Virus record (IMG/VR): IMGVR_UViG_3300025117_000038
Location: 1 to 64,000 of that record
Reading direction: 5' to 3' (one strand)
Source of the DNA: a virus
DNA length: 64,000 nucleotides
Shown: in pieces, positions 10,788-31,923 of the stretch
Layout: each line of letters begins with the position of its first letter
Numbering within the stretch: position 1 is the stretch's first letter
Position numbers and translations under genes: made by a program
Notes under the pieces: generated by a model
Database searches by the model: none
The model's input: the letters and a program-made list of their open reading frames with translations, nothing else
What the model was told of the DNA's origin: nothing

Positions 10788-10823
10788 TACTAAAGAAGTG
10801 ATAACTTCTTTCGTTGTTCACTA
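10788..10823 (+). mobile_element. 32-bp micro-element copy 1, TA-flanked
   Basis: TA-CTAAAGAAGTGATAACTTCTTTCGTTGTTCAC-TA; homologous to 17912..17947 and 25668..25703. Confidence 0.75.
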
Positions 10824-10856
10824 AAAAAAATCCCCTGTTTTTGGCAGGGGATTCTT
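10823..10856 (-). terminator. Rho-independent terminator for leftward early genes
   Basis: Minus strand ATCCCCTG-loop-CAGGGGAT followed by a T run. Confidence 0.75.
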
Positions 10857-11839
10857 AACGGACGTTGTTATCCTATTTAACTTCCCAATCGTCACACTTG
10901 TCTTTAATTTCAATGATTCGATTGTGGAGTTTACAGTAGCCAACACTGACTACCGATAAGCAAAATATACAGTTCTCACACCTTGCGGAATGGGGATGTT
11001 CACGTAAGTTCATGTTATCCTCTTACGAATATGGTTTCTGTCACTTTGTCAGCACTGACGCTGTATTTGGCATACTGGACGTGGCAGACCACGTTGACGT
11101 TGGTAAATCGATTTAGTCGGTACCAACAAGCTTTTTTCATTGCTTCTAAACGTGGGTTATTTACCTCTACAACATTTTCAAAGGGATTTTCCATTGTTAT
11201 TTCTCAATCTCTTCCCAACTGATGATTACTATAAAATCTCTCATCTTGTGTTGCCATTCGACTATATCACTATAGCTTTCGAATAGCTTAATTCCCCTGG
11301 AACCTGACCTTTTGAAGCGGTAGATGACTCTAAAACTCATACTTGTTTTCCCATCATATCAAAAGTTAACAAAACAAATGGATGAGAATATCCATCATTT
11401 TGTTGCATGACGGTGATTTTTTGGCCTGTTACAACTGCATGATGTTGTGCAAATAAACAAGCCTGTTCTCCATCATAAAATAATCTTCCAGAAACTCTAA
11501 ATCGTGGATACATAAATCTCCTTTCACAGTGCAAAATTTTCGCTGCTCCTGTGTATATAAGCTTAAATCGAAAAAATCAAAATTGCCCTGCTATTTTGTA
11601 TATTAGCTTAATAGGGTTTTTATTGTTAAATCTTCTATTGCGTATCTTTTGCGTATGTGTCAAATTTGCCACACTTTTGATGGGTACAGCAAAAAATGTG
11701 CCGAAAATAAGAAAATTATTCAATCCAGGAAATAATTATAGACTTGGCACGATTTTTGAATTAGAGATTTTTGGATATAGTTATAGAAGACCGATTTTGT
11801 CCGGTTTTAGTTTTATTTATCCGGTATCGGATAAAATGG

Positions 11840-11869
11840 ATTATACTGTCCAGTATATCCAATTGTCAA
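11840..11869 (-). promoter_or_regulatory. Consensus sigma70 promoter (leftward)
   Basis: TTGACA-18 bp-TATAAT on the minus strand. Confidence 0.75.
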
Positions 11870-11895
11870 TTATCAAAATAACAAATAAGCAATAT

Positions 11896-11924
11896 ACTAT
11901 AATTAATACGTCGTCATTTGTCAA
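11896..11924 (-). promoter_or_regulatory. Sigma70 promoter (leftward)
   Basis: TTGACA-17 bp-TATAGT on the minus strand. Confidence 0.7.
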
Positions 11925-11953
11925 GATAAATTTAGCATAAAATAAAAAATAAT

Positions 11954-11970
11954 TTGGCATGTTTTTTGCA
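11954..11970 (+). promoter_or_regulatory. Putative sigma54 -24/-12 promoter
   Basis: TTGGCATGTTTTTTGCA with correct GG-N10-GC spacing; variant TTGGCACGATTTTTGAA at 11744..11760. Confidence 0.55.
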
Positions 11971-12011
11971 TTTTTTTTTATCATTATATATATGTTTTTT
12001 GCTCAATTATA

Positions 12012-12039
12012 TTGACACTCAACCGATAATAAGTATATT
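12012..12039 (+). promoter_or_regulatory. Sigma70 promoter (rightward) for the 12.3-15 kb cassette
   Basis: TTGACA-16 bp-TATATT. Confidence 0.55.
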
Positions 12040-12311
12040 GAGACTGTTGAATGAAACCTGCTAATTGAAAACTAAATAGCTCTATTAAAAAGCTTGTGAA
12101 TCGCTTTTATTGCTGTATATCGGCTTGCAATTTGTACATGCAATCAAAACCGTACTTAGTGATAAAATCGACAAACAAGTCAATAATAGACGAAACGGAA
12201 AAATTGAATATAAAATTAATCTTAATATAGAGTAAAAACTACATGATACGTACAATTTGTTTTTTGTTTTTTTTGTTAACTATACCTATAGCTTTTTAAG
12301 ATGGTGAAAGT

Positions 12312-12887
12312 ATGGATAGCTTAGAGATTATTAAAAACGGCGATTATGTCATAAAAATCGTCCAAGATGATAACCCGGAAAGTCCTAGAGAATATGATAA
12401 TTTAGGTATAATGGCTTGCTTTCATGACCGGTACGTCTTAGGCGATAAAACAGATTTTAGAGATACCGGAGAATTATGCGAATTTATAAAAAAAAATAAG
12501 TCTGTTTATTTGCCTTTATATCTATTTGAACATAGCGGAATAAGTATATCTTGTAACGCTGAACGGTTTCGGGCGGTAGATTCGCAAGGCTGGGATTGGG
12601 GACAAGTCGGGATAATATACGTAACATATGACAAGCTACGTAAAGAGTATAGTCGTAGAAATATCACAAAAAGCTTCATTAAACAAATTAAAAAATATTT
12701 GATTGGTGAAGTCGATATATATGACAAATATATATCCGGCGAATGTTACGGTTATATTGTAGAAGACAAAAGTGGTAATTTTTTAGATTCGTGTTATGGT
12801 TTTTTTGACTTTGATGAATGTATTAGTCAAGCTAACGATTATGTAAAAACGTTGCCGCAACAATTAACCCTTAATATGGAGTATTAA
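12312..12887 (+). CDS. Phage/MGE hypothetical protein
   Basis: DDNPESPREYDNLG, LPLYLFEHSG, WDWGQVG, DSCYGF motifs recalled from phage and conjugative-element early regions. Confidence 0.55.
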   Translation: MDSLEIIKNGDYVIKIVQDDNPESPREYDNLGIMACFHDRYVLGDKTDFRDTGELCEFIKKNKSVYLPLYLFEHSGISISCNAERFRAVDSQGWDWGQVGIIYVTYDKLRKEYSRRNITKSFIKQIKKYLIGEVDIYDKYISGECYGYIVEDKSGNFLDSCYGFFDFDECISQANDYVKTLPQQLTLNMEY

Positions 12888-13357
12888 AAATGATTAGCGC
12901 AAGTTATAAGACAAAAAAACAATTAAAAGAGAACGTCGGCAAGCCATTGAATTATGTCGAGACCTCCATTTTTGGCTTGGAGTATAAGGAAAATGGTCAT
13001 TTTTGTGTCGTGGGACCTTCACCATATATACGAAAGTGGTATGCCGAAGTTTATATGGAAAACGGTTTAATTAAAAAGGTTAAATAAAATGAAAATATCT
13101 CAATTCAAAAATAAAAACGGTCAGCCAATTCATAATCAATTTATTTTATACGATTCGGAATATACTGTTTTTCAGTCTTATAATTCCATTATCGTCAAAA
13201 TCATTTTTGAAAATGGTAAACAGCAAGTATATCTTGATATTAATACTTGGAATTATTCCAAAACCACAACTAAATATAGAAATCAATTTTTAAGCGAAAC
13301 CACAAAACAAACGCAAGCCAAAATTGATAATGGAATTTATAAGCTTGTTGACTTAAA

Positions 13358-14014
13358 TTGATTATGAAAAAAAACAGATTCAATGGTCAATTTTTTACAT
13401 TCGGAAATCGAAAATTGCCGAATAATACGGCAATTTTTAACTTGGAACCGTCAACGTTTTGCTCTAGTCGCAAGCTTGGATATTGTCAATTGGATAATAT
13501 GCCAAGTGATTTATTAGACCGCAAATATTATAGCGGCCTATGTTACGCTTTGAAGGCGGAACGACTATATCCCGGTATTTTGGCATATAGAGTGCGCCAA
13601 TCGGTATTTTTTGAGAATTGTACTAGTACAAGCTTTGTGAATCAATTAATATCGGATGCAGGAACTAATATTGATTATATAAAGTACTTGCGGCTGAATG
13701 AGTCCGGTGATATTGGCAACGTCAATAATTTTTTTAAGTTAATCGACATTAGCAATAAACTATATAGATACGGAATAGTAACGTATTTATATACTGCTAG
13801 AAAGGATATATATAATATAGTCAAAAAATACGATTTTAGAAATTTAGTCGTCAATGGTTCCGGTTTTATGGCAGATAATCAATTCCAGATTATTTCAGCC
13901 AATAAACTAAAAGAGATTAAACAAAAAAATACTTTGGTATGTAAAGGCAATTGTAGATTATGCCATTTATGTACTATTAAAACGAACCGGATAATATACA
14001 ATATTATTCATTAA
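13358..14014 (+). CDS. GP88-like Cys-rich phage protein
   Basis: GNRKLP...FNL...C...CYA.K...LRLNESGD...CKGNCRLCHLC. Confidence 0.6.
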   Translation: MIMKKNRFNGQFFTFGNRKLPNNTAIFNLEPSTFCSSRKLGYCQLDNMPSDLLDRKYYSGLCYALKAERLYPGILAYRVRQSVFFENCTSTSFVNQLISDAGTNIDYIKYLRLNESGDIGNVNNFFKLIDISNKLYRYGIVTYLYTARKDIYNIVKKYDFRNLVVNGSGFMADNQFQIISANKLKEIKQKNTLVCKGNCRLCHLCTIKTNRIIYNIIH

Positions 14015-14029
14015 TTAAGAGGTTATAAA

Positions 14030-14437
14030 ATGAGTACTAGATGCCAAATTGGTTTTTATGAAAATGACACCGATAAATTATCAAAGTATAAAACTTTGAT
14101 ATATAAACATACAGACGGTTATGAGGAGGGTATCTTACCATTGCTTATACCATTAGTGCGCGATTTTAATAAATATCGCAATTCGAGCGACTGGGAATAT
14201 AAGGCCGCACAAGTCTTATATGCCTTTATGGACGCGACAACAAAATACGATAAAAAAAATGAATATTATAATGATATATCAAAATATATGGGTTATGGTA
14301 TATCGCGGTCAATTCAGTGCGATATAGAATACTATTATGCCGTATATCCAAGCTTTATTAAGGTATATGAAGCTAAAGCATATTTAAGCAAATTAAATAT
14401 GAGTAAATGGTCTTTAATTCAAACAATTGAGGTCTAA
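14030..14437 (+). CDS. Phage hypothetical protein
   Basis: MSTRC.I...IYKHTDGY...DIEYYY pattern. Confidence 0.55.
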   Translation: MSTRCQIGFYENDTDKLSKYKTLIYKHTDGYEEGILPLLIPLVRDFNKYRNSSDWEYKAAQVLYAFMDATTKYDKKNEYYNDISKYMGYGISRSIQCDIEYYYAVYPSFIKVYEAKAYLSKLNMSKWSLIQTIEV

Positions 14438-14759
14438 AATGTCATATTCTAATCTGTCATTGAATAATCAGATTGCGTTACGTCGTGCGCTTTTAAGAAG
14501 TACAAATGGAAAAATTTTCGGCTGTACTTTCAAAAAGCAGAACGGCGATATGCGCCATATGGCTTGTCGTATCGGTGTTGCTAAGTACGTTAAAGGTACG
14601 GCGACACCGAACCAAAAAGCGGTCGATGATACATACGGTTATTTGACCGTCTATGATTTTAACTGTAAAGATTATCGAAAAATTAACCTTGCAAGTTTGA
14701 CCCGTTTTAAGTATGGAAGCTTCGAGTTAAGTTTGCCTATATTGGACAGCGAGGTATAA
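14427..14759 (+). CDS. SH3/Sm-like (WYL_2-like) domain protein
   Basis: IFGCTFKKQNGDMRHMACRIGV...YLTVYDFNCKDYRKINL; paralog of the C-terminus of 570..1571. Confidence 0.6.
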   Translation: MRSKMSYSNLSLNNQIALRRALLRSTNGKIFGCTFKKQNGDMRHMACRIGVAKYVKGTATPNQKAVDDTYGYLTVYDFNCKDYRKINLASLTRFKYGSFELSLPILDSEV

Positions 14760-14974
14760 TAATATGAAGTATAAAATAATCGAAGCTGGAACGTGTCCCA
14801 AATGTTTTAGTAATGACATTGAGTTTAATTCGGCATCATTGATACATTACGATTCGTCATACCAAAACAAATGCAACAATTGTGGATTTGTTTATTATGA
14901 ATGCTATTCAATTGAATTTGTCGGGATAGTCGATAGTAATGATGACTTTTTTCCAGCAGATTAAATAATAAAAC

Positions 14975-15007
14975 TTGCCCGGTCTAATCGACCGGGCAAT
15001 TTTTTTT
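14975..15007 (+). terminator. Rho-independent terminator
   Basis: TTGCCCGGTC-TAATC-GACCGGGCAA followed by T8. Confidence 0.9.
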
Positions 15008-15682
15008 GTACTATATATTCATATATAACTATATATCTATATTAGCATATGTATATATAGATATATGTTTATATTTATATATTATTATATTGATATATGT
15101 ATATATATTTATAATGGATTAATATATCCAAGATTGAAAGAAGAGTGATAAGTCCAGGATTAAAGAGGATAATAAAGGTCATAATTGCCCATGATGACGG
15201 GGCTTAAACAGGACAAAAAAGGTCTTAATATCGAGGATATACTGTATAGTGGTCACCAAATATAACGTCCCCCCTTTTCCATTGACTCAATATGATGGAC
15301 TTTTCTTAAATCCCCTCTTGAAAAAATTTTCCGGCTCTATTTTTTGGCTGACTCATTCCTTTATATTGTTTATAAAATCCGCTAATCCGCTTTTACTATC
15401 AATAAAAATAATCCAAGTAATATTACAAAAGCAAGGAAAGATTGGGAAGATAGTAAAAATTTCCCATTAAATAATGACCATATAAATATTCCCAACTCTA
15501 ATCCCGTTATCAATAATAAAAAAATTTTTCCAAAATATTTCCACATTTTTATTTCTTTTGTTATAATTTTATCATTTCTAAAATAAAAGGTTTTTCAATG
15601 ACAACTACTCTGATAAAGCTTTTTTCATTATCAGCGTTACTCTCAATTTGAATATCGGGCGCATTTTTTTGTTTAACTTCCA

Positions 15683-16096
15683 TTATATCCCTGCCATTTC
15701 TAAAATTAATTTAATTGCATAATATTCTGGATTCATGTAAATCTGTAACAAAGTAACTGAGTTTATTAAAGCTATCACAAAAATAAAAAGTCCCATTATA
15801 TAACATATCCACTTACCGACATCACATCCAATCCTACCATCTCTAGTTTCTGTATACTTTTTGAGTTTATTTATTACAAAACCTGCCGTAAAAAACCCTG
15901 CCATTATTACTAATGCCACTAAAACATCCCCAATAGCATCAACGTAAACTTGTTTGATTGCTATCTCCCATAATTTAGGGGCAGTTTGTTCTACCATTTC
16001 GGCTAACTTAGCAATGGCCGCGCTTCCCATATCGAGAGCTTTGTCCATTACTGAGGCAACCTCATAGTTGTTTACTACCGCCAACGAATCACCCAT
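15683..16096 (-). CDS. Membrane protein (2 TM)
   Basis: Two hydrophobic helices, C-terminal NPEYYAIK motif; RBS AGGAG. Confidence 0.6.
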   Translation of the reverse strand: MGDSLAVVNNYEVASVMDKALDMGSAAIAKLAEMVEQTAPKLWEIAIKQVYVDAIGDVLVALVIMAGFFTAGFVINKLKKYTETRDGRIGCDVGKWICYIMGLFIFVIALINSVTLLQIYMNPEYYAIKLILEMAGI

Positions 16097-16757
16097 AATA
16101 ACTCCTAATTTCCATACTTTGCTTTAAGGGTTTCAAATAATTCTTTTTCCCGTTCATTTCTTTCTATCTCTTTTTTCTCTTGGTCTTCTCTTTTTTGTTT
16201 TGCCTTTCTTTCTTCTGTGTTTTTTTCTCAATCTTCTCTTTTTCTAATCTTAGTTCCTCTACTTTTTTCCAATCTTCCCAGAGATAAAACAAAGGAAAAT
16301 TAAAATGGTAAAAATCATCCTCGCCACAGTGGTATTCTTGCCACTCAATGGTGATATCTACCTTACTGATACTTATCCCATTGTATTCTTCTGAGGGGAA
16401 TACATTACTAAGAGATGGATAGTCCTTTCCTCTAAAAGAAGCAACATCTCGGCCAACATAATAAGCATTTTGTCTTAATATATCCATCTGTTCCTCTGCA
16501 AGATAAAAATCATCAATTATTTTCCGAATTTCTTGTTCTTTCATGGTATTTCCTTTGGATTATCTTGTTAAAAATGAAAATATTAACATAACAATAATAA
16601 CAAACAAAATAAATATTCCTGTTATCCATAATGGTGACAATACCCACCACCACGACCAATCGATTACATGGGTTAATTTTAATATTATAAAAGTCAAAAT
16701 TAGTAATGTTAAGCCATCCACTCCACTTGATTGTGCCATTTCAATTTTCCTTTATAT

Positions 16758-17264
16758 TCATTTCGTTTTTGGAATTGGTAAATTGGGATTAATTCCCATT
16801 TTTTTTCTCATGGCGATAATAGCTTGTCTTTTCCATATCGTAGCCATTGAATTAGTTACTCCTCTTTCTTTGCTAACCTCTATCCCTGTCTTCCCTAAGA
16901 TATACGTATCAATAAGAAAATCTTTCAATTTTTTATCTATTTTATTTAAATTAATAAACAATTCTGTATAATAATTAGGAACATAAGAATAATTATTTAA
17001 AATATTATCACTTAATTCAATAAAATCTATCTTTTTAACACCCCTGCGACTAAGTTCCACATTATTCCTATAATAATCCCCAAATTCCCACTTAACCAAC
17101 TTTCTTAAATTAATTTTTTTATTTTTTTTGAATTGAATCCAATATCTTAAACAACAATCTCCGATAAAATCATCGGTTTTATTTTTTAGATAATGACCAT
17201 AAAATTTATAAGTATATTTCTTAATAAATAATATTGCATCTTTATGAGAATATATTTTATCCAA
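16758..17264 (-). CDS. Sigma factor-like HTH protein
   Basis: C-terminal GKTGIEVSKERGVTNSMATIWKRQAIIAMRKKM resembles sigma region 4. Confidence 0.55.
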   Translation of the reverse strand: MDKIYSHKDAILFIKKYTYKFYGHYLKNKTDDFIGDCCLRYWIQFKKNKKINLRKLVKWEFGDYYRNNVELSRRGVKKIDFIELSDNILNNYSYVPNYYTELFINLNKIDKKLKDFLIDTYILGKTGIEVSKERGVTNSMATIWKRQAIIAMRKKMGINPNLPIPKTK

Positions 17265-17267
17265 TAT

Positions 17268-17585
17268 TTAAGTCCCTATCGTTGTATTCATCCATGCCCG
17301 ATATACAAATCCTGTTGCTACTGTAGTATTGGGATTTACGGTAGAGTAACCATCCCATGTACTGACTGTTGAACTATTGGTTGTGGCGGCAGCGACATAA
17401 TATGTTTGTATGCCGTTGCGTCTATCCCATCGGTCGGATGTAATTCTTCCATTTAAGACAACTCGGCAATGTTCGTGGCCACAATTGGGACAATGGAGAA
17501 CGTGATTACCGTTTAAGCTAATATCAACATTAAACTGAACATATTTATCACATTCATGACAATGTAGCTCTTGACGTTCAGTCAT
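17268..17585 (-). CDS. Zinc-ribbon protein
   Basis: CHEC...CPNCGHEH. Confidence 0.55.
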   Translation of the reverse strand: MTERQELHCHECDKYVQFNVDISLNGNHVLHCPNCGHEHCRVVLNGRITSDRWDRRNGIQTYYVAAATTNSSTVSTWDGYSTVNPNTTVATGFVYRAWMNTTIGT

Positions 17586-17911
17586 TCCTCACTCCTTTCA
17601 GTTGTCATTTGCGTCTCCTTGCCGCCCACCATACAGCAGAGATGCAAACGACGCCACTCACGAGGTAGCCGATAAAAAAAGCCGTTTCAGCCGTCATTGT
17701 TTCTCCTTTATCCCACACTCTTCATCTGAATATTGTCCATCATATTCCAATTCGACATCACCACACCGCTTGCACTTAGCAATGCACTTATACCCGGCTA
17801 TGGTTTTAGGCGGGGTCGTGAATCGGCGGCACTTGGGACATCGCGTATCAAATACTGCGTTACCGTTACCATCATCCTTGTAAGCAATAAGAGGACTCAT
17901 CCCTTCTCCTT

Positions 17912-17947
17912 TAGTGAACAACTGTCGAAGTTGTCACTTCTTCAGTA
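17912..17947 (-). mobile_element. 32-bp micro-element copy 2, TA-flanked, inserted at the 3' end of a CDS
   Basis: Minus strand TA-CTGAAGAAGTGACAACTTCGACAGTTGTTCAC-TA; removal restores ...VAIKEKG-stop with ATGA coupling to the next gene. Confidence 0.8.
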
Positions 17948-20039
17948 TGGCGACGATTAACTCAAAGAGAGCATCGTCGGGGGTGTCAGCGTAAACTTCG
18001 ATATTGTCAAACGTCCCCGTTCCGGTTGACCACACATGATATTTATTTTGGCGCGGGTCAAAAGCAATCCCCAAATGATATTCTGGCCTCAATTCTCTTA
18101 CCCACGCTATCAGTTCCCCCGTCTGGGGGATGTGGATATAATGGTCAAATGCAAGTCCTTCCATTCCAATATTCAATATAGTTCCAACGGGTTCGTCCTC
18201 ATCATCGTAATACCAGTCACCAATATCCAGCGTCTGGTCTGCGCCCAGCTCTTTCAGCTTTACGCACTCTTCAAGACTTAGCATCATTGTTCTCCTTTTT
18301 CCGCCAGAAGGCGGCGTTAATTGTTTTATATTTTCCCCAATATCTCCGCAAACGATAATGATATAGATTCGTGTTTCTGTTGTTTGCAAGATGGACATTT
18401 AATATTTAAGATTATATCTACATAACCGGGTCTTAACTTTGTTCCGACAATAGTTTTTTCTAAATCATTCCAATCACCGTGTGTGCAAGCGCATGTTGAT
18501 TCCATCATTGTTCTCCTTTGGAAGGCGGGCAAGCTCGGCCTCGGCTTCGGCTTTTTATTTCCCGCCTTAAGATGTTCGATTTCGTCCTGATAGGCGTCCA
18601 CTTGGCCCTTATTCAATACCGCGACGTGGGACGCCTTGATATATTCGACATCGGTGTCATACATCCTATCCCGACACCATGTTATCTCTGCCGCTTCACT
18701 GAAGCCCCCCCATCATCTTCAGGGTCAACCTGCAACCATATTCGGTCGGGTGCTTCTTTACTCATTGGCCCCCCATTCATCGCAAGTGTTGCGAGGTTTA
18801 ACAATCTGACCTGAATACGGCGATTTGCCGTTTGCACATTCAAGCGTATGAATGAATAATCGTCGGTATTGGATAGCCCAATTACAGGTCATGCACGTTC
18901 CGCATGTCTTACTCATCACAGACCTCCAGTTTTACCTTGACGGTGCGGACATTTTTGTCGTTGATTTTACGTCGCTCAAAATGAAAATGGCCAAAGGCAT
19001 TATTCCATAATTCAATCGACCTTCGACGCGAGTTTGAAAGGGTAAATATTTCATTAACCCATTTCCCATTATTGAGACACTGTTGCACAATGTAGAAATT
19101 CTTACTCATTATTGTCCCCTCGCTTTCCGGCGGCTCTTTTAACCGCGTCGGCAAATTCCTCGGCTGTATCAGAGGTTACATCCAGAATGGATATTGGGGG
19201 TATAGCGTCTTCCCTTGACCATATCCTTATCATTCCAGCCGAATCAGGTGGCATGATAAGAATTTCGCCATCCTCATAATCAATGCGATGAAACGCCTTC
19301 TCTGCGGCGGCGTCCATAGCATCAGACAGTTCATCGAACATCTCGGCGGGTTCGCCCTGCGGCTTCGATATTATATGATTTGGCATTTCAGTTCGAGCCT
19401 CTGGCGTCAAATGAACCGTCACCATTCTCTTAGTTGGTTCGGGTGTTCCGCCCAATCCTTCCGCCGCTTCTACAAAGTCGTCAATCGTGGGTTCGCCCTG
19501 GGACTCGGTGGAACAATCGACGTGCAGTTTGTTGGGCTGGAAGTCTTTGGCGAACTTCTCAAACAGCTTGGTATCATCTGGCTTCCGTTCAATCGGGCCA
19601 TAAACAAACGGCTGTTTCCGCTCCAACTCGGCGAGGCGGGTGTCCACGTCCTTTGCTTGTCGATATAAACCTTCGACTAAATCAAACCGTAATTTCTTGG
19701 CATCCAATATTTCCGCGATGTGTTCAAGTCGTTCCATAATACCAAGTAACAATCTATCTTTATCATTGGGAAGCCACGGAGAGAGATTCCCTTCCTCAAT
19801 TCTTAGAAATGGGAAATCGTTTGTATTAACATAATATTCCATCATTCCCCCAATATCTCATATAAATCATTTTCTAATTTATCTAATTTTTCTCTTGTTT
19901 CTTTAAATTCTATCCATTTTTGTGCTAAATCTTCAGGTAATTCATCAACATCAATATAATCCTCAAATGAAAGATAATAAAATCCACCTTCTTCAAGAGA
20001 AATTTTTAAAAAGTCTTTTTTAGTCATTGTCTCTCACTT

Positions 20040-20495
20040 TCAAATTTTGTGAAACCATTTTATCCATTCCTCTAATTTTTCACCGTATTCTATTAGAAAA
20101 TCTTTTCCAAACAAATACATCAATGATTTTTTATCATCTCCTCCTTTGATGATTCTTATATATTTATAAGTAAATATCAAATGTTGTAAGATATCAACAC
20201 TAAACGAATAGATTTCTCCACCGATGGAGATAAACCAATAATCGGCTTCAGTCGTCTGAATGCCAGAAGGTTTTGTATTGTATTCAAACTCTATTGCTAC
20301 ATTATCAGTATATCCAGACATAATATCATTTTTTATCTCTATCGGGATAGTTATATCCCCTTTTATTACCACCATATCATAACTTCTGGAATTTATCAAT
20401 CTAGCGTGAATTTGGTTGTCGATAAATATCTCAAGAATTTTATTCTCAAGATATTGACCATCTTTTAAATCTTTATTAAAATCATAATGTGTCAT
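20040..20495 (-). CDS. PD-(D/E)XK family nuclease
   Basis: YDM...IEIKND...NVAIEF...PSGIQTTEADYW. Confidence 0.7.
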   Translation of the reverse strand: MTHYDFNKDLKDGQYLENKILEIFIDNQIHARLINSRSYDMVVIKGDITIPIEIKNDIMSGYTDNVAIEFEYNTKPSGIQTTEADYWFISIGGEIYSFSVDILQHLIFTYKYIRIIKGGDDKKSLMYLFGKDFLIEYGEKLEEWIKWFHKI

Positions 20496-20543
20496 TGTAT
20501 TACCCTAAAAAGAATTCACATAACAAGAGAATGACCACAATAA

Positions 20544-21668
20544 TCAATGAAAATCAGTATTATTTTTTAACAATAAATACTCAGGATTTATATGTTTTAA
20601 GACCATTCTGCCACATCTTCCCGTTTTTTCTATTAGCGTTTTAATAACAATTCCTTCTTTAAGCGGTTGTTCCTTTGAAATTTCCGAACCCTTATTAAAA
20701 AATTCGTCTAACAACTCTGGGTTCCATGGTCCTATGTATAATGTATGAGGTAAAATAAAATCTACATTCATAACAATATTATCAATATCATAAAACATGT
20801 CTCCAAAATCACCATCACTTAAATAGTGTGGTTCTTCCCCGTTTTCATAAACCATAATATCAAAAACCATTAAACCTCTTTTGTTTTTCATTCCGTATGT
20901 ATATCCGTTTTGAATACCATCACCAAAAATTTCCCCATAGATTACACATCCCATGGGAATAGCTTTTTTCAAATTATATTTCTCTACCGCTTCTAAATAG
21001 ACATTATTCGAATAGTAATGTTTTCGACGATTTGAAAATAACTGTAACTGTACATTATGAGAGCCGAAGACAAACTCGTATTCAGGAAGAATGTTAAAGA
21101 ATTTTTTTATCTTTTTCCACCATGTATTCGCTATGGTTGGAACCCATCCGGCTCTAAAGTTGGTTCCATGTACTTTTTCGGTGATAACAACCATCTCCCC
21201 ATCAAAAATGTTAGGATAGTTTTTGATGTTCTCAATATCGGTATATTTTCTAAAGAGAGGATGGGTTTTTTTCTTGCTGACTTGGTATCCACCCTTCATG
21301 GTAATAGAGACAGTCGGTTCAAATTTAGTAATACCCAGAGTTTTAGTTACATCAATCCCCTCTTCTCTGGTTGTGATTTGAACCGTATCCAAGTCAACTA
21401 AGATTCCCTGAGAAATAACACCCCTGAGTTTGATTGTCCTGACTCTACCTTTATCCAACTTTATTTTGGCATTGCCAAGGATTTTTTCTTCCAACTCAGG
21501 GGTGAGAATGGCATCAATCGGGATATAGACAGCAATATCTCCCGATTTGAATTGCCCCTTTCCAACAATACAAACCCATCCTCTTATATAAGCCACTTCC
21601 AAACGGTCGGCATTCGGATGTGGTTCGATTCTATCGATTGAGACTGTTTCTACTTTAAGTGTTGACAT
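20544..21668 (-). CDS. ATP-dependent RNA ligase, Rnl2/DRB0094 family
   Basis: N-terminal OB-like HPNADRLE...IKLRGVISQG; motif I EKVHGTN; YGEIFG, FDI, EGIVIK. Confidence 0.9.
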   Translation of the reverse strand: MSTLKVETVSIDRIEPHPNADRLEVAYIRGWVCIVGKGQFKSGDIAVYIPIDAILTPELEEKILGNAKIKLDKGRVRTIKLRGVISQGILVDLDTVQITTREEGIDVTKTLGITKFEPTVSITMKGGYQVSKKKTHPLFRKYTDIENIKNYPNIFDGEMVVITEKVHGTNFRAGWVPTIANTWWKKIKKFFNILPEYEFVFGSHNVQLQLFSNRRKHYYSNNVYLEAVEKYNLKKAIPMGCVIYGEIFGDGIQNGYTYGMKNKRGLMVFDIMVYENGEEPHYLSDGDFGDMFYDIDNIVMNVDFILPHTLYIGPWNPELLDEFFNKGSEISKEQPLKEGIVIKTLIEKTGRCGRMVLKHINPEYLLLKNNTDFH

Positions 21669-23249
21669 TGCATCATCCTTATGTAAATAATATTATTGTT
21701 GCTGAGATTATCACAAACAATGTTAAAATCACATAACATCCGGCGATTATTTTCATAGCTATTGATAAACTTTGTGCTGTTGCTAAAAAATCTTCGAATT
21801 GTTGTGGTGTCAATGTGTCCCCAAATAATTTTTCATTGCTTTTAAATATTTTACGCGACTATAAAAAGGCATTTCGAAAATTGGGTTTAAGAAATTTTCC
21901 ACATCTTGTGAAATTTCTAATTCTTCCGCTCTCTCAAAAGCAAAAATTAAATCTTTTATCATATTTTCAGTGGCAAATCCATATTTATAATCGGCTATAT
22001 CATATTTGACTATACCACTAGACCCGTATTTATTGATATATTGGAAAAGAGGACTATGACCCTTAATGGCATCACTAAACCGATGTCTATAGCTAGGAAT
22101 ACCCATTCTTGTGGTAGCCTTGTCAATCCCAATCTGTTTATTTCCATTGTCTTTTTTAGAAACAAAGGATAGTCCAAAACGATAGAGAACTATTCCCCTT
22201 ACTGTGGTATTACTACTATAAGTATCATAAACCAATGTGGCAAGTAACTTGCCTTTAGTCTTGAAATGTTTTATTTTCATTTTTACTCCATTGGAATATA
22301 TTTATCAAAAATATGAGCTAAAAATTTTTTCTATATATTCTTCTTTATCGTTTGATTTTACAAAACATTCGGGACATACTAAATAAGTGTCACCACCATC
22401 GTTCTCCTTAAAAACCATATATCTTTTCTTGTGGATGAAGCATTTCTTAAAAGGATTATTTTTGCGTATATATAATTTTCCATTTTTATTTAATAAATTG
22501 AAATCATAAAACATTTTATAGGTATTCTTACTAATACCCCAGTTCAACAATTGTTTTTCGTAAACAAATGACTTAATTGGCGTATAGAGAAAAAGGGGAT
22601 AAAAACTCAGCCAAATTGTGGAAATACTTGTTATTAGAGATATGTTTATAAAAATACTACAATCTTGTTGATTGACAAGGGCAGATAACCACATTAATCC
22701 AAATACAAAAGTAAATAATAGTCCAAACGTTAACAAAAACAGGCTTCTATTAGTCCAAGTTTCTCTTATTCTTTTATACCACATTTATTTTTACCCTCTT
22801 TCTTCTCCTATAAAAAATATACCATGGTATTAAAGCAAGAACAATTATATTTAAAGGTTCTCGGCATATCAATTCTTCCCAAAAAATTACATTATAGACT
22901 ATCGGGAAAAGAACCATCCCAATAAAAAGAAAATATTTCCACATTCTTTTCATAATATAACCAAGAGTCAAAACTCCACCTATAACAATAATAACAACAA
23001 AAGAAATAATTCCAATTATTGTATTACTTATCCATTTCAAAAATCTCATTATTTTTTCCCCTTATTAATTTCTTCTTTCATTTCGTTATACAATGAAACA
23101 AGGCGTTTTTTAATAAAGTTAAATAATCCAATAATTTTGACTCGATTAGCATAGATTATTGATACAATAAGTATCCCAAGTCCAATTTTAGTGTACAGAC
23201 TTTTGATTTGAGACATGTTTGTTCCCTTGTTAAATTTTGTTTTTTTGTA

Positions 23250-23311
23250 TCAAGGAGACAGGACTCGAACTTCAATCCTTCTGGATTGCGGACTACTTAT
23301 CCTACCCCTCG
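23250..23311 (-). pseudogene. Degenerate tRNA-like sequence lacking an anticodon loop
   Basis: Acceptor CGAGGGG/CTCCTTG, D-arm GGA..TCC, CAATCC-AGAA-GGATTG hairpin, GTTCGAGTCC without its 5' T-stem. Confidence 0.55.
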
Positions 23312-23323
23312 TTTCTATATACA

Positions 23324-23785
23324 TTATACGCTTATCTTATTATTTTTATTCATTTTTATATATCTATCAGATAAAATAATTGAACCAGCGACAGAGACAT
23401 TCAATGAAAAATCGTAAAGTGTTGGGATATAAACAGTTGGATATATATTAGTAATTTCCTTAGGGATACCATAATCTTCGGCTCCCAATAAATAAATCCC
23501 CTGTTCGGGATGGATAAAATTAGAAAGAGAATGAGAGGTTTCTGTTTTTTCGATACAAATAAGCCGTGAATCTTTGGGAATACTGTTTTCAAAAGTATTA
23601 AAATCATGATAATCAAAAAGAGGGATACTCAAATAAGCCTTACTGGTATCGGTTTTGTGATTTTTATATCGATTGCCAATTGTGAAAATAAACGAAGCTC
23701 CAAAAAGGTGTGCCGACCTCCACAATGTTCCTATATTTTGTGGAAACTTATTTCCTATGATTCCAATTCCGCAATAACCTCTCAT
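23324..23785 (-). CDS. SpoU/TrmH family RNA 2'-O-methyltransferase (SPOUT)
   Basis: PQNIGTLWRSAHLFGA, LLGAEDYGI, SLNVSVAGSIIL. Confidence 0.9.
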   Translation of the reverse strand: MRGYCGIGIIGNKFPQNIGTLWRSAHLFGASFIFTIGNRYKNHKTDTSKAYLSIPLFDYHDFNTFENSIPKDSRLICIEKTETSHSLSNFIHPEQGIYLLGAEDYGIPKEITNIYPTVYIPTLYDFSLNVSVAGSIILSDRYIKMNKNNKISV

Positions 23786-23804
23786 GACTTAACCTTTTTA
23801 TATA

Positions 23805-23877
23805 CAGGTAGGGAAAGATTCGAACTTTCATTCTTCAGTTTTGGAGACTGATATTCTACCAATTTAATTACCTACCT
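23805..23877 (-). tRNA. trnW: tRNA-Trp(CCA)
   Basis: Cloverleaf; TCAGT-CTCCAAA-ACTGA; GTTCGAAT. Confidence 0.85.
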
Positions 23878-24079
23878 ATTTTTTATGGTTGAGAACTTTC
23901 AAATTCACTTTCTTTAATACAAAAAAGATGTTCAATAGGATATTTAATTCTTTCTTCACCATTCTCAACACAAAACAAATCACCTTTAGTATAGGTTGAT
24001 TTTGCATTTTTAAATACTATTGGTTGGGATGCTCTTTGAAACCAAATTTTTACTACCATTATACACTCCTTTTTATTTA

Positions 24080-24153
24080 TCCCCACAGGTGGATTCGAAC
24101 CACCATTGGAGGGTGTTTAAGACCCTTGCCTCTACCTGTTGGGCTATGTGGGG
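24080..24153 (-). tRNA. trnL: tRNA-Leu(TAA), short variable loop
   Basis: AGGGT-CTTAAAC-ACCCT; acceptor CCCCACA/TGTGGGG. Confidence 0.85.
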
Positions 24154-24575
24154 GTTGTTTTTTTGGGTTTTACTTTTGTGGTACAAAACCCATTAAAAAT
24201 GCCGTTACATTTTCTTGAACAGAAAGTATTTTTATAACCTTTTAATAATGGGGATTGATTTGCATATCTTTCAAATTTTATTCCACAATTTTTACAAATA
24301 AATATTTTTGTTGTTCTGCCGTTTGGATATCTTATTTTTCCATGAAGTCTTGCATGCTCTTTTCTTTTCATGATTTTTATATTTTCTGGTCTATTATCAT
24401 GTTTGTCGTGATTTATATGATGAGCAACTTCATCATCGTTTAGCAATCTTTTTATTTTATTTTCTGCAATAATGCGATGGGCAAGTACGTATCCATGTAT
24501 ATCGGCTTTTGGGTGTTCTGGAACAACTCCATATAAATACTCGCCTTTTTTAACAATTTTTTTTATAGTCCACAT
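24144..24575 (-). CDS. HNH homing endonuclease in the tRNA array
   Basis: AHRIIAE...VAHHINHDKHDNRPENI...EHARLH plus C-terminal zinc finger. Confidence 0.9.
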   Translation of the reverse strand: MWTIKKIVKKGEYLYGVVPEHPKADIHGYVLAHRIIAENKIKRLLNDDEVAHHINHDKHDNRPENIKIMKRKEHARLHGKIRYPNGRTTKIFICKNCGIKFERYANQSPLLKGYKNTFCSRKCNGIFNGFCTTKVKPKKTTPT

Positions 24576-24586
24576 ATTTATGTTTT

Positions 24587-24610
24587 CTCACCAGACTGAG
24601 CTACGAGAGA
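24587..24610 (-). pseudogene. 5' fragment of a tRNA (acceptor 5' strand plus D-arm) truncated by the HNH gene
   Basis: TCTCTCG-TA-GCTC-AGTCTGGT-GAGA directly upstream of the HNH start. Confidence 0.55.
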
Positions 24611-24752
24611 TTGTTCCCTGTCTTCCCTTTTTTGATTACGACGAATCCATCTATTCCAATAGGTTTTGTACCATCTATTCCGTCTTTCTGGGAATCGACC
24701 ATCACCGTTATATGCCCATCGAATATGTTTTCTACGTTTTTTCATAATTTTG

Positions 24753-24863
24753 TTTCCCCAACAGAACTTGAACCCGTAGTCGATGGATTAGTAAACAAAT
24801 TTTAATTTATTAATACTTATGCAATTAGAAATCCATTACTTTATCCAATTGAGTTATGAGGAA
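24753..24863 (-). tRNA. trnR: tRNA-Arg(TCT) interrupted by a 37-nt insertion in the anticodon loop; probably decayed
   Basis: ATGGA-TTTCTA[insert]A-TCCAT; TA duplicated; G:U-rich stems. Confidence 0.7.
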
Positions 24864-25391
24864 TTATATTGATATAATATAAAATCTATTGTCCATCCCT
24901 ATATATTTGTCTAAAAGACCTAAAACACTATTCCACGAAAGTTCCCCATTTCCACAACCTGGTCTTGGGATAATTATTTTTTTCCATTCATTTATGTCGG
25001 CTAAATAAATAATCTGCCTTAAAGACCTTTCTATAATTTCTAAAGTAGCTTTAGCAGCCCAACCTGGAACTATATCACCACATTGGAATTTATCAGCCAT
25101 GTGTTTTACCACATTGCTTTTATCTTCATAACAAATAGTTTGTCTTGGTTTTACTGGAAAAGAATAAATAGAATATTTATTATATTTAATAAGTGGAAAA
25201 ACGCTATTCCCAAAAAGAGAAATTCCCTGTCCCAAAATAGCCTCAAGATTTTGTCCCGGATATAATTTAACGGCTTGTTTGGCTACTCCCCTACCCATAA
25301 CCCCATTTCCATTGGCTTTTACGAATCCATTAGTTGTGACACAAATTACATCGGCTTTTTGTTGAAAAATATTTCCAGAAATAAGATGCAT
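24864..25391 (-). CDS. Macro domain (Appr-1-p/ADP-ribose processing) protein
   Basis: GNIF, ICVTTN, MGRGVAKQ, FPVK, PRPGCGNGELSW; start moved to MHLISG because the upstream ORF extension overlaps tRNA-Ser. Confidence 0.85.
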   Translation of the reverse strand: MHLISGNIFQQKADVICVTTNGFVKANGNGVMGRGVAKQAVKLYPGQNLEAILGQGISLFGNSVFPLIKYNKYSIYSFPVKPRQTICYEDKSNVVKHMADKFQCGDIVPGWAAKATLEIIERSLRQIIYLADINEWKKIIIPRPGCGNGELSWNSVLGLLDKYIGMDNRFYIISI

Positions 25392-25411
25392 TTTCCATTC
25401 CTTTATAAAAG

Positions 25412-25497
25412 AGGAAGGTGTAGGATTTGAACCTACGGGGGTTGTTAACCCCAATAGTTTTCAAGACTATCGCCATAAACCACTCGGCCAACCTTCC
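25412..25497 (-). tRNA. trnS: tRNA-Ser(TGA)
   Basis: ATAGT-CTTGAAA-ACTAT; long variable arm. Confidence 0.9.
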
Positions 25498-25505
25498 ATA
25501 ATTAG

Positions 25506-25589
25506 CGGAAGGGGAAAGAATCGAACTCTCAGGCCAAATACATGGCCACAGATTAGCAATCTGTTGCATTACCATTATGCTACCCTTCC
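25506..25589 (-). tRNA. trnS: tRNA-Ser(GCT)
   Basis: ACAGA-TTGCTAA-TCTGT; long variable arm. Confidence 0.9.
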
Positions 25590-25635
25590 AATGACAGGAG
25601 AAGGATTTGAACCTCCGAAGCTTGCGCGACAGATT

Positions 25636-25653
25636 TACTGAAGTAATTCATTA
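25636..25653 (+). mobile_element. 14-bp ends-only derivative of the micro-element, TA-flanked
   Basis: TA-CTGAAGTAATTCAT-TA, sharing the CTGAAG and TTCAY ends. Confidence 0.65.
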
Positions 25654-25667
25654 CAGTCTGTTGCCAT

Positions 25668-25703
25668 TACTGAAGAGGTGATAACTTCTTCCGTTGTTCA
25701 CTA
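25668..25703 (+). mobile_element. 32-bp micro-element copy 3, TA-flanked, in the tRNA-Tyr D-loop
   Basis: TA-CTGAAGAGGTGATAACTTCTTCCGTTGTTCAC-TA. Confidence 0.85.
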
Positions 25704-25739
25704 ACCACTCGGCCATCCTGTCTAATTCTTATTTATTTG

Positions 25740-25904
25740 AGCAAAGTGGCAGGACTCGAACCTGCAAAAGGACTTTCTTGGTGGCATTTATTAGTTCCTC
25801 GGCCTTAAGGAATCCTTGCGGACGGCTTAGAGCAAGTAAGCCTACATCGCCACATCGCCGGTATTTCAACTTATCATAGCGTTTACATTCCGCCACACTT
25901 TGCT
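25740..25904 (-). ncRNA. tRNA-framed structured RNA with a ~113-nt multi-hairpin domain replacing the anticodon/variable arms
   Basis: Acceptor-like GCAAAGTG/CACTTTGC, Leu-like D-arm, T-arm GCAGG-TTCGAGT-CCTGC. Confidence 0.7.
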
Positions 25905-25910
25905 TTTTTA

Positions 25911-26022: not shown

Positions 26023-26126
26023 TGGCAAAGTCTCAACAGATTCGAACTGTTCATGCAACCAGCACTATCCCGGATTCGAACCGGATGGGGTAGCTAACCC
26101 TCTTCGACCATCTCGTTGACTTTGCC
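26023..26126 (-). ncRNA. Double T-loop tRNA-mimic RNA
   Basis: 9-bp terminal stem GGCAAAGTC/GACTTTGCC, two TTCGAAT T-arms, two TGG-containing D-like loops. Confidence 0.7.
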
Positions 26127-27273: not shown

Positions 27274-27477
27274 TTATTTCCTTATTATATCCAATTCATC
27301 ACAAAAAATTATTGAAATTGCATTATTAATATCTCCCCCCATCCGAGTATAATCATCACCGCCATCAATAAATAAATTTTTACATTTGCACCATCTAAAA
27401 TCATGTCGGTAAAATGAAAAAATTCTATCGTGACATTTGGGACATTCTATTCCATATTTAATGGGTTTATTTAACAT
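27274..27477 (-). CDS. Small phage zinc-binding protein
   Basis: CPKC.D.I.S..RHDFRWCKC...IDGG. Confidence 0.65.
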   Translation of the reverse strand: MLNKPIKYGIECPKCHDRIFSFYRHDFRWCKCKNLFIDGGDDYTRMGGDINNAISIIFCDELDIIRK

Positions 27478-28061: not shown

Positions 28062-28089
28062 AAATACCCTTTTAATAAAAAATTTTAAA

Positions 28090-28156
28090 CGGGAGCAACG
28101 GGATTCGACCCCCTGACGTGACAGGCCAGTGGTTGTATCCATTTAACTATGCCCCC
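28090..28156 (-). pseudogene. tRNA-Asp(GTC) lacking the variable loop and part of the T-stem
   Basis: CTGGC-CTGTCAC-GTCAG followed directly by GGGGTCGAATCCCG; only 67 nt. Confidence 0.7.
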
Positions 28157-30290: not shown

Positions 30291-30363
30291 TATTGGGAGA
30301 GGGATTCGAACCCTCACTGGATAGGGTCTAAGCCTATTGCCTCTACCGTTGGGCTACCCCAAT
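30291..30363 (-). tRNA. trnL: tRNA-Leu(TAG), short variable loop
   Basis: ATAGG-CTTAGAC-CCTAT. Confidence 0.85.
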
Positions 30364-31824: not shown

Positions 31825-31923
31825 GGGGCTAAATGGTGTCGATTTGGGTGTTGTGACTCTTTGGGAGTTTGCCTGACAAGGCGGTAACACCCGAAGACCT
31901 CGGTTCGATTCCGAGTAGCTCCA
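31825..31923 (+). ncRNA. Minimal tmRNA-like RNA (tRNA-like domain only)
   Basis: GGGGCTA..TCGA start, helix TTTGGGTGTTG/TAACACCCGAA, GAC linker, T-arm CTCGG-TTCGATT-CCGAG, TAGCTCC-A with G3:U70. Confidence 0.85.

Follow-up and report, generated by a model that had tools for sequence, protein, structure and literature searches.

Copies and sites of a 32-bp unit

The stretch of DNA analyzed here (the window, 64,000 nucleotides) belongs to a groundwater bacteriophage, represented by IMG/VR record IMGVR_UViG_3300025117_000038 (117 kb, 68% complete). Genes for sigma-70, DnaB, DnaG and RuvB/C point to a bacterial host. Within the window we identified three copies of the pattern CTRAAGARGTGAYAACTTC-N4-GTTGTTCAC, each without a mismatch and flanked by TA, as described in the original prediction. 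Allowing up to 3 mismatches produced no further match in the window, and none of 100 dinucleotide shuffles contained any match to the pattern. Extension of the search to the full genome, which had been proposed as a check, added a fourth copy. The copies, the tRNA genes concerned and the candidate derivatives are as follows.

10790..10821, plus strand: c1, 32-bp element; TA at 10788-10789 and 10822-10823; 60.2 bits (R1 model)
17914..17945, minus strand: c2, 32-bp element; TA on both sides; 57.8 bits (R1 model)
25670..25701, plus strand: c3, 32-bp element; TA on both sides; 60.4 bits (R1 model)
113177-113208 of the genome (outside the window), minus strand: c4, fourth copy; TA on both sides; 2 core differences
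25592..25722, minus strand: tRNA-Tyr(GTA) gene, 131 nt with two inserts; long variable arm
24753..24863, minus strand: tRNA-Arg(UCU) gene, 111 nt; called by ARAGORN as a 75-nt tRNA after deletion of 37 nt
25638..25651, plus strand: I2, 14-nt insert between TA and TA, anticodon loop of tRNA-Tyr
24791..24825, minus strand: I3, 35-nt AT-rich insert between TA and TA, anticodon loop of tRNA-Arg(UCU); R1 10.1 bits, E 3.1
16051..16075, plus strand: c5, candidate short member, TA CTGAGG CAA CCTCAT AGTTGTTTAC TA; R1 17.8 bits, E 0.035

The four canonical copies score 58-60 bits with the R1 model, and nothing else exceeds 17.9 bits. Copies c1-c3 are covered by contigs of three sequencing runs with 0 differing letters; these runs are possibly the source samples, and therefore do not count as independent confirmation. 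Chance similarity, an adapter or an assembly artefact, the last two named in the original prediction as grounds for refutation, is hardly credible given the empty shuffles, the gap in scores and this agreement between contigs.

All four canonical copies have TA on both sides, and so do I2, I3 and c5. As TA makes up 9.5% of dinucleotides, eight TA flanks out of eight are not due to chance, unless the TA belongs to the unit itself. Past the TA, the flanks of the copies have nothing in common. Copy c1 lies in a gap of ~390 bp and adjoins a GC-rich hairpin that, on the minus strand, runs into T8, and c4 lies in the sense of an upstream RuvB-like gene; both are in 3' intergenic regions, each near a terminator-like hairpin. 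Copy c2 occupies the final codons of a 154-aa ORF (17934-18398, minus strand), with the following ORF's Shine-Dalgarno sequence and ATG immediately after it. Copy c3 is located in the D-loop of the tRNA-Tyr gene, antisense to the tRNA. In agreement with the original prediction, both orientations relative to transcription occur, with the CTGAAG sense on the coding strand in c2 and c4 and antisense in c3. ORFs contain all but 9.3% of the TA sites, yet two of the four canonical copies are intergenic and a third falls within the final five codons of a CDS. This placement at harmless sites fits insertion followed by purifying selection.

Fold of the unit and the genes it interrupts

The minimum-energy fold of the unit is an 11-bp hairpin (ACTGAAGAAGT / GAYA loop / ACTTnnnnnGT), with ACTTCTTCAGT as its 3' arm and its first A contributed by the flanking TA. 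The hairpin is followed by an invariant TGTTCAC and then by TA, giving an off-centre layout with a conserved tail of 8 nt. In the CTGAAG sense the hairpin energy ranges from -8.4 to -10.3 kcal/mol (z -1.8 to -2.7). Stem cells are paired in 88.6% of cases, against 27-57% when the partners are slid, and include one compensatory pair and one G.U pair. The stem sequence differs between copies; covariation in these four sequences does not attain significance, its level being reached in 126 of 500 shuffles. An internal GTGA/TCAC hairpin with a variable loop, as proposed before, is compatible with the copies (96.9% of cells paired), but its pairing is invariant and the 11-bp fold is favored. The two folds are mutually exclusive, and the supposed variable loop corresponds to the 3' arm of the 11-bp hairpin. 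The imperfect terminal inverted repeats TACTGAAG / TAGTGAAC are present as claimed, sharing 6 of 8 positions (10 of 13 in c2, by direct reading). The combination of an off-centre hairpin and a conserved 8-nt tail implies that single-strand recognition (REP/IS200-like) fits at least as well as a DDE enzyme that binds terminal inverted repeats.

A 32-nt unit with a hairpin followed by an 8-nt tail also has the layout of a Cas6-processed repeat. The unit might hence be a functional motif whose spread is secondary, either mimicking a class 1 CRISPR repeat (as a solitary unit or RNA anti-CRISPR) or acting as a 3'-end hairpin that stabilizes or processes mRNA. The positions of c1 and c4 beside terminator-like hairpins, and the sense orientation of c4, are in line with such a role, and in the CTGAAG sense each of the four copies, taken with its 3' TA+A, has a stop codon in every frame of the three (direct reading). 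Solitary repeat units are known from intergenic regions of phages, according to the accessible part of PMC10651486. Against this, array-like or repeated matches were absent from 185,579 species genomes (exact patterns), the surroundings of c1 and c4 are not enriched in promoter-like sites over shuffles, RNAs of this kind are not encoded within a tRNA D-loop or at the end of a CDS, and the stem is not constant among copies. Overall, we regard a functional motif as very unlikely.

The interrupted genes can be restored exactly. On the minus strand at 17.9 kb, deletion of c2 plus one TA yields ...GTC GCC ATA AAG GAG AAG GGA TGA, which overlaps the ATG that opens the next ORF, so that the CDS end and ATGA coupling described earlier are recovered; with c2 present, the ORF ends in ...AILKK at a TGA within the element. 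For tRNA-Tyr, removal of 34 nt gives a normal D-loop, as the original prediction had indicated, and the restored gene aligns with the neighboring tRNA-Ser and with two other phage tRNA-Tyr genes. That description had missed a second insert (16 nt including TA) in the anticodon loop, and ARAGORN calls an 81-nt tRNA-Tyr(gta) only after both inserts (34 + 16 nt) are deleted. Deletion of the insert from tRNA-Arg likewise leads to a call of Arg(tct). The 7-nt anticodon loops, CTGTAAA (Tyr) and TTTCTAA (Arg), require that exactly one TA is left behind, which indicates that the TA is derived from or adjacent to the target, rather than only a part of the motif.

In both tRNAs the stems are fully paired and the conserved loop residues are kept, whereas I2 and I3 look diverged or decayed. 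Such intact tRNAs would be unexpected if old insertions had killed the genes, and this counts against an origin as DNA elements. I2 matches the 32-mer lacking 18 nt of the hairpin at 11 of 14 positions and is oriented like c3; it is likely a hairpin-less derivative. The 3' end of I3 (TTTGTTTAC+TA) resembles the tail of the element, a weak link that makes I3 a possible decayed member. The candidate c5 adds 25 + 2 = 27 nt, in frame, to the N-terminal codons of ORF 15683-16096 (minus strand), and could tentatively be a 25-nt in-frame copy within a CDS. Both I2 and c5 fit a decaying family, which overall comprises 4-7 members.

RNA-repair genes, relatives and possible mobility

The phage encodes RtcB (phrog_1075, E 1.7e-92), and a second RNA ligase, with an OB domain, adjoins the tRNA cluster. 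Other RNA-related genes encode an RlaP nucleotidyltransferase, a Macro domain protein and a SpoU methylase. Other inserts interrupt the anticodon arm of at least two more tRNA genes, located at the genome end. These features are compatible with removal at the RNA level, in which the TA-flanked inserts would be small introns, excised at both U|A junctions by an endoribonuclease, with the exons sealed by RtcB or the second RNA ligase. This would leave the interrupted tRNAs functional, and the elements could be mobile as DNA too. Both anticodon-loop inserts are compatible with the canonical intron position 37/38, and the structural integrity of tRNA-Tyr and tRNA-Arg despite the state of I2 and I3 points the same way. 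However, the 117-kb record has no match to the tRNA-splicing endonuclease (PF01974), and a bulge-helix-bulge could not be drawn by hand at the Arg or Tyr junctions. In addition, three of the four canonical copies lie outside tRNAs, and the element runs antisense to tRNA-Tyr yet in the sense direction at c2 and c4. As c2 alters the C-terminus of a protein and c5 adds 9 codons, these two are plainly not spliced from the coding mRNA. Phage RtcB and RNA ligases are usually explained by the repair of tRNAs cut by host nucleases, and we know of no protein-spliced tRNA introns in bacteria, the type of host indicated here.

On balance, we consider RNA-level removal unlikely. A composite reading is a little less likely again: mobile mini-introns of a bacterial virus would move as DNA into TA sites, those in tRNA loops among them, and would leave the tRNA transcripts at U|A, with rejoining by RtcB or RNA ligase. 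If the mini-intron reading were true, the 'RNA repair' genes would double as a splicing system, and protein-dependent tRNA splicing would for the first time be linked to a bacteriophage, explaining the intact tRNA-Tyr and tRNA-Arg. Interrupted yet intact tRNAs together with RtcB and a second RNA ligase bear on the roles of phage RNA ligases beyond the repair of tRNA damage inflicted by the host.

Six-frame searches of the 117-kb record (68% complete) gave no matches to PF13358, PF01359, PF01797, PF00665 or PF00589, and just two sub-threshold matches to PF07282 (13.9 and 13.4 bits). No integrase was found in this record, and there was no transposase among the 68 of 161 ORFs that were scanned. 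The statement that no transposase is visible thus extends to the whole record. The earlier link to IS630/Tc1-mariner elements retains the TA on both sides as its only basis, with no transposase of this or another type in the record.

Three pattern scans of IMG/VR revealed no copy. Two matches in JGI metagenome contigs both lack the left arm and are not real copies, and in the 185,579 species genomes the strict pattern gave 0 matches and the loose pattern 4 chance-like single matches, lacking the left arm or TA. In a single related phage (TerL 65% identical) the best match reached 13.8 bits, with no copy. No copy in another genome was found in these collections, and the family appears, as far as can be seen, specific to this phage lineage. 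Empty alleles, which the original prediction had named as a check, did not appear either: contigs of 4 runs, which hide rare variants, showed no 34-bp skip at c1-c3.

The uniform contigs, the confinement of copies to one genome in the searches made and the lack of a transposase in the record would suit features that are not mobile, being old, fixed and spread by recombination or duplication, with the TA as part of a 36-bp motif such as the binding site of a dimeric phage protein. In c2 the two halves form inverted repeats that agree at 10 of 13 positions, like a dimer site (direct reading). A binding site has no reason to occupy a D-loop or an anticodon loop of a tRNA, though, and both the lack of shared flanks beyond the TA and the single TA needed to rebuild the anticodon loops argue against it. 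We therefore judge such immobile features improbable, about as much so as the mobile mini-introns.

We favor, with modest confidence, a family of ultra-small non-autonomous DNA elements that insert at TA. Clean-looking insertions at TA are found in unrelated sites (the D-loop of a tRNA gene, the end of a CDS and, twice, a 3' intergenic region), which suggests the DNA-level mobility that was originally proposed; as the contigs, record and collections searched yielded no empty allele, transposase or copy in other genomes, internal reconstruction is its sole basis. Insertion would take place at the DNA level, by an enzyme acting in trans. The mobile unit would consist of the 11-bp hairpin and the invariant TGTTCAC tail in single-stranded form. 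On insertion, either the TA would be duplicated or an element with a terminal TA would land beside a TA, two routes with indistinguishable products. Copies would persist where harm is small, at 3' untranslated ends by terminators, in the last codons of genes and in tRNA loops, and shorter or degenerate derivatives would arise through hairpin loss and decay. The enzyme could be a host product, an unrecognized phage nuclease, or a protein encoded in the third of the phage genome that the record lacks. A TA-duplicating DDE transposase (IS630/Tc1-like) and a hairpin-recognizing single-strand HUH enzyme (REP/RAYT- or IS200/IS605-like) are about equally likely.

If it truly transposes, a unit of 32 bp, with a 14-bp derivative, is near the lower size limit for mobile DNA, and it appears to be among the smallest mobile DNA elements seen. 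It would mark an unrecognized mobilizing enzyme or a minimal substrate of a known one, and could serve as a marker linking host and virus.

Comparison with known systems

The anticodon-loop inserts resemble tRNA introns in being compatible with position 37/38 and in the presence of RtcB. They differ from the protein-spliced introns of archaea and eukaryotes in that attempts by hand gave no bulge-helix-bulge and no splicing endonuclease was found, and most copies of the phage element are outside tRNAs. Group I introns of bacteria and phages have a ribozyme core of ~200 nt or more, compared to 14-35 nt for the inserts, and no Rfam intron matches were obtained in the interrupted tRNAs.

Solitary CRISPR repeat units and RNA anti-CRISPRs are similar in length, in the hairpin with an 8-nt tail, and in being phage-borne and partly intergenic. 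In contrast to solitary units, the phage element had no matching array in the species genomes searched (exact patterns), has a variable stem, and carries a TA-flanked insertion signature that has no counterpart there. An intergenic position just downstream of a promoter, characteristic of solitary units and Racr, does not apply: c2 and c3 are inside genes, and promoter-like sites at c1 and c4 do not exceed shuffles.

With MITEs of the IS630/Tc1-mariner type the element shares a TA at either flank, short terminal inverted repeats that match imperfectly, the lack of coding capacity and dispersal in both orientations. The TA flanks agree with insertion at TA, and equally with an element ending in TA placed beside a TA. 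According to PMC11602168, prokaryotic MITEs measure 50-800 bp and have terminal inverted repeats no shorter than 10-15 bp; in phage genomes their occurrence is documented, though infrequent. The 32 bp of the phage element fall below this range, as the original prediction had pointed out, and its inverted repeats span ~8-13 bp, with 6 of 8 positions shared at the ends. Its best hairpin sits away from the centre and leaves a conserved tail on one side, the search of the 117-kb record (68% complete) gave neither a DDE_3 nor a Transposase_1 gene, and no copies were found in the bacterial genomes searched. Its genome is that of a virulent-looking phage, a setting where transposable elements are seldom seen and face strong counter-selection.

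Cyanobacterial 'very small mobile repeated elements' of a few tens of bases were reportedly described by Elhai et al. in 2008; such small dispersed repeats are alike in size class, and differ in sequence and host. REP elements are imperfect palindromes of ~30 nt with a GTAG head, extragenic and present in many copies. REPINs, for their part, are miniature mobile DNA, according to the accessible part of PMC3116915. The phage element differs from REP/REPIN-RAYT systems in that the record has no Y1_Tnp gene (PF01797, 0 matches), the conserved flank is TGTTCAC instead of GTAG, TA is present at both flanks, and just two of the four canonical copies are intergenic, the others being in genes, within a phage-borne family of 4-7 members. 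As in REP elements, its copies are found at 3' gene ends near terminators, with the structure kept while the stem varies. As in REP/REPIN-RAYT and IS200/IS605 systems, a short imperfect palindrome of ~30 nt forms a single-strand hairpin with a short conserved single-stranded flank.

Copies of the element and the sites they interrupt

The original prediction described three copies of a 32-bp, TA-flanked hairpin element, and its pattern matches exactly those places with 0 mismatches. No further match with up to three mismatches was present in the window, and 0 of 100 shuffled sequences matched. When the search was extended to the full genome with a relaxed core pattern, a fourth copy was found beyond the window.

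Canonical copies of the element, each with the stretch scanned for stop codons
Window 10790-10821 (+): first copy; scanned stretch 10788-10824
Window 17914-17945 (-): second copy; scanned stretch 17911-17947
Window 25670-25701 (+): third copy; scanned stretch 25668-25704
Genome 113177-113208 (-): fourth copy; scanned stretch 113174-113210

Aligned in one orientation, all four copies consist of TA, 32 nt and TA, with nothing in common beyond the TA, which makes up 9.5% of dinucleotides. The 3' flank is TAA in 4 of 4 copies. In the CTGAAG sense and including the 3' TA with the following A, every copy contains stop codons for all three reading frames, namely TGA/TAA at element positions 2-4, TGA at positions 10-12 and a TAA made with the flank. 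The region is reproduced without differences in contigs of three runs (possibly the source samples themselves).

The interrupted targets can be restored. As anticipated, without the second copy and one TA the 154-aa ORF that carries it ends in VAIKEKG, its TGA overlapping the next ATG, an arrangement frequent among the genes of this phage. With the copy present, the ORF ends in AILKK at a TGA within the element, and the ribosome-binding site of the downstream gene is kept. The proposed restoration of tRNA-Tyr was confirmed as well: after deletion of 34 and 16 nt, ARAGORN calls a tRNA-Tyr(gta) of 81 nt, and deletion of one insert only, whichever is chosen, yields no call. The tRNA-Arg gene minus 37 nt is called as a tRNA-Arg(tct) of 75 nt. 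Anticodon loops of 7 nt in both tRNAs require that exactly one TA is retained; the TA is therefore either a duplicated target or a target adjoining an element with a terminal TA.

Two canonical copies are intergenic, beside terminator-like hairpins, and a third falls among the final five codons of a gene. Such a bias, despite a non-ORF share of TA sites of 9.3%, is the pattern expected if selection removes harmful insertions.

Hairpin, tail and shorter candidate copies

The hairpin proposed originally paired GTGAYAAC with GTTGTTCAC around a variable N4 loop. These arms do pair in 96.9% of alignment cells, but they contain no informative variation and do not form the fold adopted. Single-strand folding in the CTGAAG sense gave another hairpin, the same in 4 of 4 copies and mutually exclusive with the first, in which A(-1)CTGAAGAAGT pairs with ACTTnnnnnGT in 11 pairs closed by the loop GAYA (-8.4 to -10.3 kcal/mol; z -1.8 to -2.7). 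In this stem the N4 forms the 3' arm rather than a loop. In the four-copy alignment 88.6% of the stem cells are paired, compared to 27-57% with the partners slid. Covariation comprises one two-sided change (G:C in three copies, A:T in the first), with a G.U in the third copy; it is not significant with four sequences and was equalled by 126 of 500 shuffles. The hairpin is followed on its 3' side by the invariant tail TGTTCAC and then TA, and this one-sided conserved tail makes the unit asymmetric. The predicted terminal inverted repeats (TACTGAAG and TAGTGAAC) are real, though short. By analogy, the layout of a hairpin with an 8-nt tail suggested that the element might mimic a CRISPR repeat; however, pattern scans of 185,579 species genomes showed no array of this kind, and copies are situated inside genes.

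A covariance model (R1) was built on the four copies, which themselves score 58-60 bits. Three shorter or decayed candidates were considered.

Candidate family members
Anticodon loop of tRNA-Tyr, second insert (I2): 14 nt flanked by TA on both sides, oriented as the third copy
Anticodon loop of tRNA-Arg(UCU), 24753-24863 (insert I3): 35 nt, AT-rich, between TA and TA
16049-16077: one further candidate, R1 score 17.8 bits, E 0.035

Insert I2 matches the 32-mer minus 18 hairpin bases at 11 of 14 positions, and we read it as a putative hairpin-deleted derivative of the element. The end of I3, TTTGTTTAC plus TA, is similar to the element tail, and the insert matches R1 weakly (10.1 bits, E 3.1); its possible kinship to the element is only suggestive. 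The candidate at 16049-16077 combines a shorter hairpin with the tail AGTTGTTTAC, is bordered by TA on either side, measures 27 nt counting one TA, and supplies, in frame, N-terminal codons of an ORF. Another R1 match (E 0.35), at genome 108740-108775, falls within ordinary coding sequence and probably arose by chance. The 9-mer TTGTTCAC, common to an insert in the tRNA at genome 116535, occurs 6 times genome-wide against 4.8 expected; as the motif is not enriched, this insert was not counted as a member.

Several features argue for insertion at the DNA level: the interruptions are clean and bounded by TA, the targets are unrelated and can be restored exactly, both orientations occur, the positions are harmless, and decayed or deletion derivatives are present. 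With modest confidence, we therefore favor a tiny non-autonomous element that inserted as DNA.

Phage genome, RNA-repair genes and unusual tRNAs

The IMG/VR record of 117,395 bp, whose first 64 kb form the window, is classed as linear, with a completeness of 68% (CheckV) and a GC content of ~33%. The standard code reads well, 83% being covered by ORFs of at least 100 aa. The virus is a tailed phage, encoding a large terminase, a portal and a major head protein, and its host is judged to be bacterial from a sigma-70 region 4 protein, DnaB, DnaG, clamp loader, RuvB and RuvC. The runs containing the phage DNA are groundwater and soil metagenomes, with no RNA run among them. Other genes in the window encode a Mom-like DNA modification protein (27477-28142, -), a phage sigma factor (4161-4661, +) and a glycosyltransferase/sugar epimerase block (32676-42004, +). 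The large subunit of ribonucleotide reductase (42850-45798, +) contains an in-frame HNH endonuclease segment at residues ~364-478, which suggests an intein or an inserted homing endonuclease.

RNA-repair genes within and near the tRNA cluster, and the ORF adjoining the RNA ligase
4883-6037 (+): RtcB
20544-21668 (-): RNA ligase with N-terminal OB domain
30343-31173 (-): RlaP nucleotidyltransferase
24864-25454 (-): Macro domain protein
23324-23785 (-): SpoU methylase
20040-20495 (-): 151-aa ORF adjoining the RNA ligase, PD-(D/E)XK nuclease motif (D40, E53-x-K55)

The main rival explanation, removal of the inserts at the RNA level, fits the presence of RtcB, a second RNA ligase, RlaP and the Macro domain protein, the structurally perfect interrupted tRNAs, and the further insert-bearing tRNA genes at the genome end. 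However, a splicing endonuclease was not found in the record, a bulge-helix-bulge could not be drawn by hand, and the majority of copies lie outside tRNAs.

Several other tRNA-like features are unusual. Between tRNA-Glu and tRNA-Tyr lie two stretches uncalled by any tool (window 26024-26126, -, and ~25735-25910, -): one of 103 nt with a tRNA-Sec-like fold and a 9-bp acceptor, at only 16.4 bits, the other with good acceptor and T arms and ~100 extra bases. When deletions were tried exhaustively on the remaining odd tRNA-like stretches, ARAGORN accepted so many alternatives that the outcome was uninformative. Further odd tRNA genes, without a match to any ribozyme or intron family, are located beyond the window at genome 116355-116990. 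They include a 3' tRNA half that runs straight into its matching 5' half, possibly representing a tRNA gene that is permuted or rearranged, a tRNA with ~25 extra anticodon-loop bases forming an 8-bp hairpin, and a tRNA (43.9 bits) in which 101 nt replace the 15-nt anticodon arm. A stretch of 102 nt (window 31825-31926, +) matches the tmRNA family (49.8 bits, barely above the cut-off) at the model ends only, corresponding to a tRNA-like domain without the usual body. The Leu-anticodon tRNAs (taa, tag; window 24080-24153, -, and 30290-30364, -) measure only 74-75 nt and so are without the long variable arm that a bacterial tRNA-Leu should have; the same two short tRNAs occur in the sole related phage found (TerL 65% identical).

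Mobilizing enzymes, distribution and comparison with known elements

For DNA-level insertion, an enzyme was sought throughout the record. Six-frame searches for DDE_3, Transposase_1, Y1_Tnp, rve and Phage_integrase gave 0 matches, the TnpB zinc ribbon gave two sub-threshold matches in small zinc-finger ORFs, and no transposase was seen in 68 of 161 ORFs scanned (Pfam or PHROG). The record encodes the following nucleases: an HNH protein of the tRNA cluster (24144-24575), the HNH insert in ribonucleotide reductase, a PD-(D/E)XK nuclease, RuvC and the 151-aa ORF; none of them was tied to the element by the evidence gathered. The family of the 151-aa ORF comprises at least 1,251 proteins. Folding from the single sequence was not usable (pLDDT 32.7), while a prediction with 80 homologues was confident (pLDDT 96.1); its structure is similar to that of two junction resolvases, RecU and Hjc, as well as to I-Ssp6803I, a homing endonuclease of a tRNA intron (Foldseek E 2e-5 to 2e-4; PDB profile search E 0.017). 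As a candidate mobilizing or splicing nuclease this ORF was rejected, nothing connecting it with the element.

Three pattern scans of IMG/VR found no copies elsewhere. A metagenome scan gave two matches, both without the left arm, and among 185,579 species genomes the strict pattern had 0 matches and the loose pattern four chance-like ones; lacking the left arm or TA, these matches were treated as chance. A 22-kb contig of one run matches the second copy with 4 differences. It most likely represents the phage's own fourth locus, because exactly 4 of 36 positions distinguish the fourth copy from the second, and the depths are comparable. Empty alleles, by which mobility was to be checked, were absent from contigs of four runs. 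The related phage (58 kb, 12 intact tRNAs) contains no convincing element match (best 13.8 bits), no tRNA-Tyr or tRNA-Arg(TCT), and no homologues of the 154-aa and 137-aa proteins. In the search for close relatives, megablast against phage records gave no match, and an exact IMG/VR scan with the tRNA-Tyr 3' half found nothing. Relatives of the RNA ligase are at most 38% identical, with the element in 0 of 24 loci, and the 154-aa protein matched only itself among 5.8 billion proteins. A literature search, made without the supplementary tables that list viral MITEs and solitary repeats, brought up no description of short TA-flanked inserts in tRNA genes of phages.

Cyanobacterial small dispersed repeats, reportedly described by Elhai in 2008, are an example of very small mobile DNA. 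The TA alone suggests an IS630/Tc1-like enzyme, a link also noted in the original prediction. By analogy, the size, off-center hairpin and one-sided conserved tail look more like the substrate of an HUH single-strand enzyme (REP/RAYT, IS200/IS605 ends); both types of enzyme appear similarly probable. Prokaryotic MITEs are described in one account as 50-800 bp long, carrying inverted repeats no shorter than 10-15 bp, and as rare in viruses (PMC11602168), and REPINs, as presented in another, are evidence that very small mobile DNA exists (PMC3116915). The element differs from IS630 MITEs in size and in having no transposase in the record, and from REPs in the lack of a RAYT and of GTAG. We therefore place it among the miniature palindromic mobile elements, outside the IS630 MITE and REP families.
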